Shown here piece after piece: positions 54,385-62,107 of a stretch of 64,000 nt of DNA (the first letter of the stretch is position 1; each line of letters starts with the position of its first letter). Source of the DNA: Escherichia phage vB_EcoM-G3F7; sequence record MZ234035.1; one strand, written 5' to 3'. The notes under the pieces are model-generated. The model was not told the origin of the DNA. It did not search any database and saw nothing but the letters and a program-made list of their open reading frames with translations. Position numbers and translations under genes: made by a program.

Positions 54385-54603
54385 TTGGATTTATGTGAGG
54401 AAAATATGAAGCGTAAACGCAGTGCTTTTACATTTATTGAATGGTTTTTCGATAATATTTTTCCGGCTTTATTCATTTTCATGCTGATTTTTGCTTTAGG
54501 TTCAGTTGTAGTTGGAATCTATTTGATGACAGTAGTCGGAATTGATATTCATCAAAATGGTTTAAAATCCGTAGTTGAAACAATTTGGAACGGTGTAAAA
54601 TGA
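54385..54603 (+). CDS. hypothetical membrane protein
   Basis: 72-aa ORF with hydrophobic helices. Confidence 0.4.
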   Translation: MDLCEENMKRKRSAFTFIEWFFDNIFPALFIFMLIFALGSVVVGIYLMTVVGIDIHQNGLKSVVETIWNGVK

Positions 54604-54718
54604 TGAATTTGCTGAGCGGTTGGTTTTATATTCTTATGTTTTACATTGGCGCAAATTTTCCATATTGGATGGGATGGTCAACAACTGCGTTTGGATTTTA
54701 TACTCCTTGAGGTGAATT

Positions 54719-54934
54719 ATGAAAATCTTTAAAGATGTAAAAGTTGGTGAAATTTTCTGTTTAGATAACGGTGATCAGTTAATTCGTATTTCACCTCTTA
54801 AGAGCACTAGCGAGAAACCGACAGTTAACGCTACTTTAGCAAACAATAGTAATGAACGTTTCTGTATTGAAAATGATACTGAAACTTATACCGTAGAAGA
54901 GTTTTGGGAATTGAGCGTCGACTGCGACGATTAA
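54719..54934 (+). CDS. hypothetical protein
   Basis: 71-aa ORF. Confidence 0.45.
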   Translation: MKIFKDVKVGEIFCLDNGDQLIRISPLKSTSEKPTVNATLANNSNERFCIENDTETYTVEEFWELSVDCDD

Positions 54935-54994
54935 TTTAATGGCCGTGTGTATTCATGCGGCCTTGGAGTAGAAAATAATTTAGAGGAAATTAAT

Positions 54995-55453
54995 ATGAAA
55001 TACATGACTGTTACTGATCTGAATAATGCAGGCGCTACCGTTATTGGTACAATCAAGAACGGTGAATGGTTTTTGGGAGTTCCACATAAAGATATTTTAT
55101 CTAAACCTGGATTTTACTTTTTAGTAAGTAAATTAGATGGTCGTCCATTTAGTAATCCATGTGTGTCTGCACGATTTTATGTAGGTAATCAGCGTTCTAA
55201 GCAAGGATTTAGTGCGGTTCTAAGTCATATTCGTCAACGTCGGTCTCAGCTTGCGCGTACTATTGCAAATAACAATGTTCCATACACAGTATTTTATCTG
55301 CCTGCTTCTAAGATGAAACCTCTGACTACGGGATTTGGAAAAGGTCAGTTAGCTTTGGCGTTTATTCGTAATCATCATTCTGAGTATCAAACACTTGAAG
55401 AAATGAACCGTATGTTGGCTGATAACTTTAAATTCGTTTTGCAGGCATATTAA
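54995..55453 (+). CDS. ndd: nucleoid disruption protein Ndd-like
   Basis: 152 aa from ATG 54995 after GAGGAAA RBS; size and position match T4 ndd. Confidence 0.7.
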
Positions 55454-55533
55454 TGAGTAATTTCCACAACGAACATGTGATGCAGTTCTATCGTAATAAT
55501 TTTAAAACTAAAGGCGTCTTCGGACGCCAGTGA
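55453..55533 (+). CDS. stp: Stp peptide
   Basis: 26-aa [29 protein letters not shown], near-identical to T4 Stp as recalled; not in ORF track. Confidence 0.85.
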
Positions 55534-55540
55534 GGAAAAT

Positions 55541-55699
55541 ATAAATATTGCAAAATTATTAGGAGTTATTTCATTTATTTGTTGGATAGTAGCATGTGTT
55601 TTAACTATCTGTATTGATGTCAGCAGTGTGTTTTCGCAAGCTTTAGCTCAGGGTATGTGTGCATATTTAACATTTGTGTTGTTATCTACTAATGATTAA
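55541..55699 (+). CDS. ac: small hydrophobic protein, Ac-like by position, non-AUG start
   Basis: About 50 hydrophobic codons open from ATA/ATT after GAGGA; no in-frame ATG near start. Confidence 0.3.
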   Translation: MNIAKLLGVISFICWIVACVLTICIDVSSVFSQALAQGMCAYLTFVLLSTND

Positions 55700-55832
55700 G
55701 AAAATCTTGGGCTATTCATTAGCCCTTGCTATTTTATTGATAGCATTATATTACGGAATAATGTTCGGATTAATTCAAGTCGTGCTTTTCATTTCTGATG
55801 TTATTATGGCACTACATTCACTAGTATGGTAA
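55692..55832 (+). CDS. small hydrophobic membrane protein
   Basis: 46-aa ORF immediately upstream of gene 52. Confidence 0.35.
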   Translation: MIKKILGYSLALAILLIALYYGIMFGLIQVVLFISDVIMALHSLVW

Positions 55833-55836
55833 ATTT

Positions 55837-57165
55837 ATGCAACTGAATAATCGTGATTTAAAAAGTATCATTGATAATGAAGCATTGGCTTATGCTATGT
55901 ACACGGTTGAAAATCGTGCCATTCCAAATATGATTGACGGATTTAAGCCAGTTCAACGATTTGTTATTGCTCGAGCTCTTGATTTGGCACGAGGAAATAA
56001 AGATAAGTTTCACAAACTCGCTTCTATCGCAGGCGGTGTAGCGGACCTTGGATATCATCATGGTGAAAACTCTGCGCAAGACGCAGGTGCTTTGATGGCT
56101 AACACTTGGAATAATAACTTTCCTCTGTTAGACGGTCAAGGAAACTTTGGTTCTCGTACTGTCCAAAAGGCAGCAGCAAGTCGTTATATTTTTGCTCGTG
56201 TAAGTAAAAATTTCTATAACGTATATAAAGATACTGAATATGCTCCAGTACATCAAGATAAAGAACACATTCCGCCTGCTTTCTATTTGCCTATTATTCC
56301 TACTGTTCTTCTTAATGGCGTTTCCGGTATTGCAACTGGTTATGCAACTTACATTCTTCCTCATAGTGTTTCTTCTGTCAAGAAAGCTGTACTGCAAGCT
56401 CTTCAAGGAAAGAAAGTAACTAAACCGAAGGTAGAATTCCCAGAATTTCGTGGTGAAGTCGTTGAAATTGATGGGCAATATGAAATTCGTGGAACATATA
56501 AGTTTACTTCACGAACTCAAATGCATATCACTGAGATTCCATATAAGTATGATCGTGAAACTTATGTGAGTAAAATCTTAGACCCGCTTGAAGATAAAGG
56601 CTTCATTACATGGGATGATGCTTGTGGTGAGCATGGCTTTGGCTTCAAAGTTAAATTCCGAAAAGAATACTCTTTGAGCGATAATGAAGAAGAACGCCAT
56701 GCAAAAATTATGAAAGACTTCGGGTTGATTGAGCGTCGTTCCCAGAATATTACCGTCATTAATGAGAAAGGAAAGCTGCAAGTTTACGATAATGTAGTTG
56801 ATTTAATCAAAGACTTCGTTGAAGTTCGTAAAACTTATGTCCAAAAACGAATTGATAACAAAATCAAAGAAACTGAATCAGCATTTCGTTTAGCTTTTGC
56901 CAAGGCACATTTCATTAAGAAAGTAATTTCAGGTGAAATTGTTGTACAAGGTAAAACTCGCAAAGAACTGACCGAAGAACTTTCTAAAATTGATATGTAT
57001 TCTTCTTATGTTGATAAACTAGTTGGAATGAACATTTTTCATATGACTTCCGACGAAGCAAAGAAACTTGCTGAAGAAGCTAAAGCCAAAAAAGAAGAAA
57101 ACGAATATTGGAAAACTACTGATGTAGTTACAGAATACACCAAAGATTTAGAGGAAATCAAATGA
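55837..57165 (+). CDS. 52: topoisomerase II medium subunit gp52 (GyrA-like)
   Basis: 442 aa; matches T4 gp52 length and sequence as recalled. Confidence 0.9.
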   Translation: MQLNNRDLKSIIDNEALAYAMYTVENRAIPNMIDGFKPVQRFVIARALDLARGNKDKFHKLASIAGGVADLGYHHGENSAQDAGALMANTWNNNFPLLDGQGNFGSRTVQKAAASRYIFARVSKNFYNVYKDTEYAPVHQDKEHIPPAFYLPIIPTVLLNGVSGIATGYATYILPHSVSSVKKAVLQALQGKKVTKPKVEFPEFRGEVVEIDGQYEIRGTYKFTSRTQMHITEIPYKYDRETYVSKILDPLEDKGFITWDDACGEHGFGFKVKFRKEYSLSDNEEERHAKIMKDFGLIERRSQNITVINEKGKLQVYDNVVDLIKDFVEVRKTYVQKRIDNKIKETESAFRLAFAKAHFIKKVISGEIVVQGKTRKELTEELSKIDMYSSYVDKLVGMNIFHMTSDEAKKLAEEAKAKKEENEYWKTTDVVTEYTKDLEEIK

Positions 57166-61352: not shown

Positions 61353-62107
61353 TTATACTCTTGGACCATATATTGCTCCAACATTTTGCCATGTTGGAGC
61401 GGACCCTATGACAGCATAACCAGCAGCGCCGCCATTATATTCAGATCCTTGACCGCGAATATTGCATCTACCTCCCGCGGAACCTACTTCACCACCGTTT
61501 CCACCATTATAGATACCATTCACGGATCCTGAGCCAGGTGCAGAAATAGAATAGATCCTCCTGGCGCACCAAAAGGACGACCGCCACCACCACCAAAGGT
61601 CAATCTCATTCGTGAAAAAGGAGAATAATATCCGCCGCCGCCACCGCCGCCACCGCCTGCAATAGCTCCGCCATTATTAATTCTTAGTCTCCCACCAATA
61701 TCGTTTTGAATACAATGACCTCCAGCTGAGCCAGGACTATTGCTACCGCCATTACCTCCACGACCATACATCGTTACGCCATGTATATTTAACTGAACAT
61801 ATTCATTTGGTGTATCTCCGTACATGAAGAATAAAGGAACATCTTTAGAATAAGAAACGATATCACCAACAATATTGAATACAATAGGTGCACCGCCAGC
61901 TTCAAAGCATCTATCACGGAACCACTGACCATTAAAATTGTGGTTTGCTCCTACAGTATGAATAATTTCTCGTGAGCGACCTGCAAATTGACTCATCCAG
62001 CAAGGAACACCCAATCTTAATTGACCAGCCGCTTGACTCATCCAGCGCTGTCCTGTTTCATTTGCGGCTGAACTTCCAATCCAACCAGGAACACCAACTA
62101 CTGCCAT
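61353..62107 (-). CDS. 38: long tail fibre adhesin gp38 (T2-type, Gly-rich), apparent frameshift
   Basis: N-terminal 195 codons ([13 protein letters not shown]..., poly-Gly) stop at 61520; Gly-rich C-terminal part continues in another frame to stop 61353-61355. Confidence 0.8.
61632..61658 (-). repeat. GC-rich triplet repeat encoding poly-Gly in gp38
   Basis: CCGCCGCCGCCACCGCCGCCACCGCC tract in an AT-rich genome. Confidence 0.6.

Follow-up and report, generated by a model that had tools for sequence, protein, structure and literature searches.

An ATA codon at the ac start in the ndd-stp-ac-52.1-52 block of Escherichia phage vB_EcoM-G3F7: a lineage-private allele predicted to reduce or abolish Ac synthesis

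The closest described system for the locus reported here is the early region of phage T4, for which the reference annotation gives the order ndd, stp (165505-165585), ac (165342-165497), 52.1 and 52. T4 ac (NP_049877) encodes a predicted membrane protein of 51 amino acids. The gene is non-essential, and its mutation or deletion was demonstrated to make T4 resistant to acriflavine (10.1101/2025.06.30.662393). Ac was proposed to be located in the membrane and to block AcrAB-TolC (10.1101/2025.06.30.662393; also PMC13250531). Spontaneous acriflavine-resistant ac mutants occur at ~1e-5, and 40% of them are base substitutions (PMC4120765). It was in T4 mRNA that hairpins of the C(UUCG)G tetraloop class were originally discovered (Tuerk et al. 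1988; PMC4371310). T4 late promoters are composed of an 8-bp box and an AT-rich downstream sequence, contain no -35 element and occur in either orientation (PMC2988020).

With regard to translation initiation at codons other than AUG, AUA and AUU in E. coli support 1-2% (range 0.1-3%) of the initiation obtained with AUG (bioRxiv 10.1101/063800). The AUU-initiated E. coli genes infC and pcnB resemble ac in the DNA described here in having a near-cognate codon behind a normal Shine-Dalgarno sequence; however, their non-AUG codon is conserved and regulatory, whereas the ATA found here is absent from all homologues of ac.

The window, i.e., the whole 64,000-nucleotide stretch of Escherichia phage vB_EcoM-G3F7 DNA that was analysed (MZ234035.1), contains a tight early-gene block on the + strand at 54995-57165, as read from the sequence and the list of open reading frames (ORFs). 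Its gene order is identical to that of T4, and a 501-nt query taken from it was 100% identical to phage vB_EcoM-G3F10 (MZ234038.1; Tequatrovirus) at equal coordinates, with 545 phage records matching the query. From its sequence, the region is the ndd-stp-ac-52.1-52 block of conserved T4 early genes, as carried by a Tequatrovirus. Its features, and the related hairpins elsewhere in the window, are as follows.

54995-55453, + strand: ndd, nucleoid disruption protein (G3F10 annotation at equal coordinates, T4 synteny, ORF list)
55453-55533, + strand: stp, 26 aa; by homology, activates the PrrC anticodon nuclease of the host and inhibits type Ic restriction (PF08133, phrog_6763, T4 alignment)
55513-55528, + strand: C(UUCG)G tetraloop hairpin GGCGUC-UUCG-GACGCC, within stp codons 21-26
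55532-55536, + strand: ac Shine-Dalgarno sequence GAGGA (sequence; ribosome-binding site annotation in phage U115)
55540-55547, + strand: TATAAATA, perfect match to the T4 late-promoter box (motif match; AT-rich downstream)
55541-55543, + strand: ac start codon, mutated to ATA by a G to A change at 55543 (T4 and relatives carry ATG; aligned against T4 and WilhelmHis)
55541-55699, + strand: 52-codon ORF of ac, the acridine sensitivity/resistance locus, with two hydrophobic segments (synteny, tblastn, phrog_2501)
55692-55832, + strand: 52.1, DUF7396, 46-aa membrane protein (Pfam PF24129 positions 1-46 of 46; T4 annotation)
55709-55725, no strand assigned: second hairpin, GGGCTATTCATTAGCCC, in 52.1 codons 6-11, terminator-like on both strands
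55837-57165, + strand: gene 52, encoding the medium subunit of topoisomerase II, which closes the cluster downstream (ORF list, T4 and G3F10 annotation)
14028, 16395, 17665, 22374, 24546, 29055, 31416, 36948, 47577, 52858, 53087 and 55513, + strand: C(UUCG)G hairpins

In the GenBank record of G3F10, stp and ac are both unannotated and 52.1 begins at TTG 55674 (52 aa; 55674-55832), whereas the DUF7396 profile and T4 support ATG 55692. Gene callers fail on short genes and on a mutated start codon, and the annotation of stp, ac and the 52.1 start needs correcting. The genes stp, ac and 52.1, and the CUUCGG hairpin class, are all known T4 features, and T4 biology as currently understood is unchanged by the locus. 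The sole unreported detail is the private start-codon allele of the dispensable gene ac, which also spells a late-promoter box.

A first-pass annotation of the window had taken the 26-codon ORF overlapping an Ndd-like stop to be stp, and this identification was borne out. The ndd TAA (55451-55453) and the stp ATG (55453-55455) have one base in common, which gives the TAATG overlap. The peptide matches Pfam PF08133 (anticodon nuclease activator) over positions 1-26 of 26 (71.2 bits; cut-off, 25) and phrog_6763 (E = 3.8e-20). T4 stp (NP_049878) likewise has 26 codons, the TAATG overlap with ndd and an identical hairpin, and 25/26 residues are the same, the difference being L17F (TTT versus CTT at 55501-55503, codon 17). 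The conserved N-proximal 18 residues were reported to be the functional part of Stp (PMC3014915); 17/18 of them are identical to T4, with L17F as the only change. The same substitution is common to WilhelmHis and one IMG/VR contig, and these residues are otherwise nearly invariant. By these matches the ORF is stp, and PrrC activation and type Ic inhibition would follow here by homology.

Homologues of stp were also observed outside the T-even phages. A metagenome scan with an stp 17-mer returned mostly chance matches from soil contigs, with ~10 stp-bearing loci among the matches listed, and thus contributed little diversity. Kagunavirus-type siphophages and related metagenome contigs carry unannotated stp homologues ending [T/A]KGVFGK, such as that of Escherichia phage K1ind3 (GU196281, 40773-40844; locus L016, 601-672) and those of loci L023, L029, L038, L147, L149, L150 and L153. 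The DNA of this type is ~82% identical to T-even stp and lacks the hairpin, and its stop overlaps the ATG of the next gene. In the Dhakavirus-like IMG/VR contigs L151 and L156 (~170.5 kb), the stp start has been lost (CGG AGT AAT TCC versus ATG AGT AAT TTC), while the hairpin and the following ORF are intact; stp in both contigs is likely a natural null.

The GGCGUC-UUCG-GACGCC hairpin that had been described over the last codons of stp is present at 55513-55528 (codons 21-26), separated by 3 nt from the ac Shine-Dalgarno sequence downstream. Its folding energy is -11.5 kcal/mol (z = -4.4), and 0/200 shuffled sequences were as stable. All 12 C(UUCG)G hairpins in the window (stems, 4-9 bp) lie on the + strand, i.e., that of the early transcripts, with none on the - strand, and most of them are intergenic and near the next ribosome-binding site (RBS). 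The stp hairpin is like the T4 mRNA hairpins of this class in its UUCG loop, C:G closure, GC-rich 6-bp stem and position directly upstream of the next RBS; unlike them, it occupies coding sequence, namely the six final codons of stp, and not an intergenic spacer. These features assign it to the C(UUCG)G hairpin class of T4 early mRNA. Stem-loops of the PeSL cassettes (PMC2839356, PMC4122927), which belong to this class, are followed by an early promoter; none follows the stp hairpin, which is thus not a PeSL. Rfam covariance models run over 54500-56500 gave no family match, only one sub-threshold chance hit.

An origin of the hairpin as a by-product of the Stp peptide was rejected on the basis of codon usage and of the Kagunavirus KGVFG without a hairpin. 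The hairpin is made of C-ending codons that are rare in the phage (GGC 12%, GUC 7%, UUC 26% and CGC 14%). With the codon usage of the phage, the peptide GVFGRQ would be encoded with a perfect 6-bp Watson-Crick stem at a probability of ~0.0004. Kagunavirus stp encodes KGVFG by other codons, which form no structure. In Tequatro-, Dhaka- and Gaprivervirus the hairpin is present with G-U-compatible changes, and stem pairing is preserved through G-U in Bp7 (terminal C to U) and TH57 (A to G); the loop is UUUG in VR7 and TH57. Covariation itself is weak, since the independent changes are few and one of them, a C to A in FriedrichZschokke, breaks the stem and leaves an energy of -5.7 kcal/mol. In T2-type stp the C-terminus differs and the hairpin is missing. 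The rare-codon build, the G-U-preserving changes and the unstructured Kagunavirus KGVFG together argue that the hairpin has been selected at the RNA level in T-even phages, and the broken stem of FriedrichZschokke and the T2-type stp argue that it is not indispensable.

The hairpin is probably not a terminator. A Rho-independent terminator on the + strand was rejected because no U-tract is present, the + strand tail being AGUGAGGAAAA. A terminator scan reports the hairpin for the - strand only, where the tail is TTTAGTTTTA; a function on that strand is unlikely, as 12/12 CUUCGG hairpins are oriented for + strand RNA, and the - strand T-run is best explained as the complement of Lys/Thr codons. 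Its class and position suggest, as most likely, a stabilising or insulating role for the hairpin: a very stable structure immediately 5' of the ac RBS would hinder mRNA decay or insulate folding.

Downstream of the hairpin, the first-pass annotation had seen a GAGGA RBS followed by an exact TATAAATA, and both are present (55532-55536 and 55540-55547). The hydrophobic frame beyond them is open from 55481 to the TAA at 55697-55699 and includes ATA 55541 and ATT 55547. It had been described as about 50 codons with no in-frame ATG, a statement that holds for the first 38 codons but not for codon 39, which is an ATG (55655); the first canonical in-frame start is GTG 55628. The position and size of this ORF had been compared with those of T4 ac, and the likeness extends to the sequence. 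A tblastn search with Ac retrieved 468 phage records, nearly all with at least 90% identity. The ORF matches phrog_2501 with E = 2.7e-24 from profile position 1, which corresponds to the codon at 55541, and it is from the equivalent codon that WilhelmHis and U115 annotate an "acridine resistance protein". T4 ac has the same position between stp and 52.1, the same 7-nt spacer, the GAGGAAAATAT leader and the overlap with the 52.1 start, and its product has ~94% amino-acid identity to that of the window. The differences from T4 are ATA in place of ATG, an extra Thr codon near the C-terminus and A27V; the extra Thr and A27V are common to many ATG-bearing relatives, e.g., WilhelmHis. Judged from these comparisons, the hydrophobic ORF is T4 ac, intact apart from its start codon. 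The spacing between GAGG and the start is 5 nt, and the ac junction GAGGAAAATATG is conserved across genera.

At the ac start, the alignment reads GAGGAAAATATGAATATT in T4 and WilhelmHis and GAGGAAAATATAAATATT in the window. The suggestion of a non-AUG gene was therefore not sustained as a property of ac: T4 ac has a canonical ATG at the equivalent position, which is the outcome that had been named beforehand as refuting it, and records with ATG outnumber those with ATA. The alleles were counted by megablast with a 55-mer that carries the variant at position 28, and every 28-nt seed spans the variant. The ATA 55-mer occurs in three records (G3F10, CHD94UKE2 and PM123), all from one laboratory, and the ATG 55-mer in at least 427; a search of IMG/VR with a 33-nt ATA pattern found no copy of the ATA allele. 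ATG is also the codon at the ac junction (hairpin, GAGGAAAATATG) of Dhakavirus Bp7 and of Gaprivervirus VR7 and TH57. All other T-even-type stp loci retrieved (metagenome, IMG/VR) likewise have ATG, even before a different small hydrophobic ORF; the related-locus search of IMG/VR with Ac gave five loci. Because the outgroup genera and the other T-even-type stp loci carry ATG, this codon is taken as ancestral and ATA as derived. In sequence terms, a conserved unusual initiation signal is excluded, and the ATA is placed as a lineage-private point mutation of the start codon.

A single G:C to A:T transition accounts for the change at 55543. Over 501 nt, WilhelmHis shows 99.8% identity, with one mismatch, and in the overlapping 411-nt stp-ac-52.1 alignment the start-codon base is the only difference. 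Since a single base in 501 nt separates the window from its closest ATG relative, the mutation is recent. The intact ac ORF was considered as a sign of selection and rejected as such, given that the start codon alone distinguishes it from the nearest ATG relative; the very recent date of the mutation would be the sole reason why the ORF has stayed intact. CHD94UKE2 was isolated from wastewater, and PM123, a recombinant bred by the Appelmans procedure, has 11% of its coding regions from CHD94UKE2 (Loose et al. 2021, PMC8614997). G3F10 and CHD94UKE2 are 99.9% identical over 20 kb. The ATA allele has a single origin, in one wastewater lineage (CHD94UKE2, G3F10), from which it passed to the laboratory-bred PM123. 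Such an allele could easily be fixed at a plaque-purification bottleneck, as ac mutants arise at ~1e-5 and 40% of them are substitutions.

We consider it likely that the locus is a T4 ndd-stp-ac-52.1-52 block in which a single transition gave ac an ATA start and made it a hypomorph or null, predicted to confer acriflavine resistance, and in which the stp hairpin is selected at the RNA level. Initiation at AUA behind the intact GAGG, or at AUU two codons on, would be expected at ~1% of the AUG level, and Ac synthesis would be largely off. With ac dispensable, the allele would be a tolerated natural hypomorph or null, and phages with it would be acridine-resistant. Among the T4 ac mutants obtained in the laboratory (Wang & Ripley 1998, cited in PMC4120765) there are likewise single substitutions in this dispensable 156-bp target; the present allele is unlike them in that it comes from environmental isolates with no known acridine selection. 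Independent ac lesions were found elsewhere in Tequatrovirus, namely a TCA to TAA change at codon 11 in a T2 stock (PV958097; L017), a 1-nt deletion in Ec_YwIITB1 (L159) and, in Sf25 (L160), a deletion of ~125 nt that fuses stp codon 17 to the last third of ac and removes the stp 3' end together with the hairpin. CHD94UKE2, G3F10 and PM123 are candidate therapeutic phages, and all three are predicted to be natural ac-deficient, acriflavine-resistant variants. Intercalators are antiphage chemicals and Ac is proposed to block AcrAB-TolC, so that natural ac nulls would be handy comparison strains; WilhelmHis is the one-base partner of G3F10 in the compared stretch.

An alternative to loss of function is that initiation at AUA 55541 or AUU 55547 through the intact GAGGA, possibly with reinitiation after the stp UGA, still yields adequate Ac, the allele being neutral or serving to tune expression down. 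The Shine-Dalgarno sequence, its spacing and the ORF are indeed undamaged, near-cognate initiation at AUA and AUU is measurable (bioRxiv 10.1101/063800), and the allele came through 20 rounds of breeding into PM123 (PMC8614997). An Ac level of 1-3% might still suffice for function, and reinitiation at AUA by ribosomes that have terminated at the stp UGA, which lies 8 nt upstream, might be more efficient than initiation de novo. However, the expected output is ~0.1-3% of that of AUG; the codon is conserved in no homologue, with 3 records against at least 427 and ATG in all outgroups; the integrity of the ORF is uninformative, given the one-base gap to the closest ATG relative (411 nt / 501 nt); and loss of ac is known to be tolerated. 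We therefore regard functional non-AUG initiation as unlikely. A sequencing or assembly error with G as the true base at 55543 was also considered, and all three ATA records do come from one laboratory and pipeline; the base is nevertheless present in three separately assembled genomes of different length, including the recombinant with its CHD94UKE2-derived segment, and lies outside any homopolymer run, which leaves an error scarcely credible.

The remaining alternatives concern the promoter box. The G to A at 55543 turns TATGAATA of T4 and relatives into TATAAATA, and the new box satisfies all known sequence requirements of a late promoter. The motif is depleted in the window: shuffled sequences predict 10.1 copies and octamers of the same composition average 14.5, but 3 are present, so that an extra copy is notable. 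One of the two other copies is located 30 nt upstream of an 81-codon ORF on the same strand, which we take to be soc, a late gene. Judged from its sequence, the new box may well fire late and give transcripts from inside ac that cover 52.1 and 52. The transition might accordingly matter, or have been selected, as the source of a new gp55-dependent late promoter with a start at ~55553-55556 and late expression of 52.1 and gene 52, the loss of ac being a side effect. The perfect 8-bp match, the AT-rich downstream sequence, the roughly five-fold depletion of the motif and the copy upstream of soc are on the side of this idea, as is the report that T4 late promoters need nothing else and occur in either orientation (PMC2988020). 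On the other hand, some consensus sites are not proven to be active in vivo (PMC2988020), the box is not conserved in T4 relatives, which have TATGAATA and no late promoter at the ac start, and no benefit of late transcription of gene 52 is known. The box has arisen once, and with this single origin there is no evidence of selection for it. We thus find selection for the box highly improbable. Equally doubtful is an adaptive two-in-one switch, in which the same base change would stop early Ac, protecting the phage from DNA-intercalating compounds, and install a gp55-dependent late promoter that re-times 52.1 and gene 52. The late box is an incidental by-product of the ac start mutation, and this natural locus would allow the late-promoter activity of a newly arisen TATAAATA to be tested cleanly.

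The loss of the ac start may also affect the next gene. The 52.1 ATG is located within AATGATTAA, overlaps the ac stop and has no Shine-Dalgarno sequence. Because of the missing Shine-Dalgarno sequence and the start inside the ac stop region, 52.1 is probably translationally coupled to ac, as far as geometry indicates. If so, 52.1 would lose this coupling with the ac start mutated, and its output may drop too. The AATGATTAA overlap is conserved in Bp7, VR7 and TH57, even with an unrelated upstream ORF.

Several minor observations were made in the same comparisons. At window position 61549/61550, in the gp38 adhesin gene on the - strand, 28 nt (TACCGCCAGTCGCGCCTGATTGCATATC) of MZ234038.1 are missing; the gp38 ORF (61520-62107) encodes 195 aa in the window versus 260 aa in MZ234038.1, i.e., a frameshift, which could be a version difference or an artefact. 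The GGGCTATTCATTAGCCC stem-loop in 52.1 is annotated as an ARNOLD terminator in phage D5505; its loop is changed in Bp7 and VR7, and a change in T2 breaks its stem. The slot between the hairpin with TGAGGAAAATATG and the AATGATTAA of the 52.1 start (window 55534-55699) varies in its small hydrophobic ORFs, holding ac, an ac paralogue plus ac, or unrelated ORFs when the window is compared with Bp7 (L012), VR7 (L013), TH57 (L014) and FriedrichZschokke (L015). This variation looks like cassette exchange at conserved junctions.
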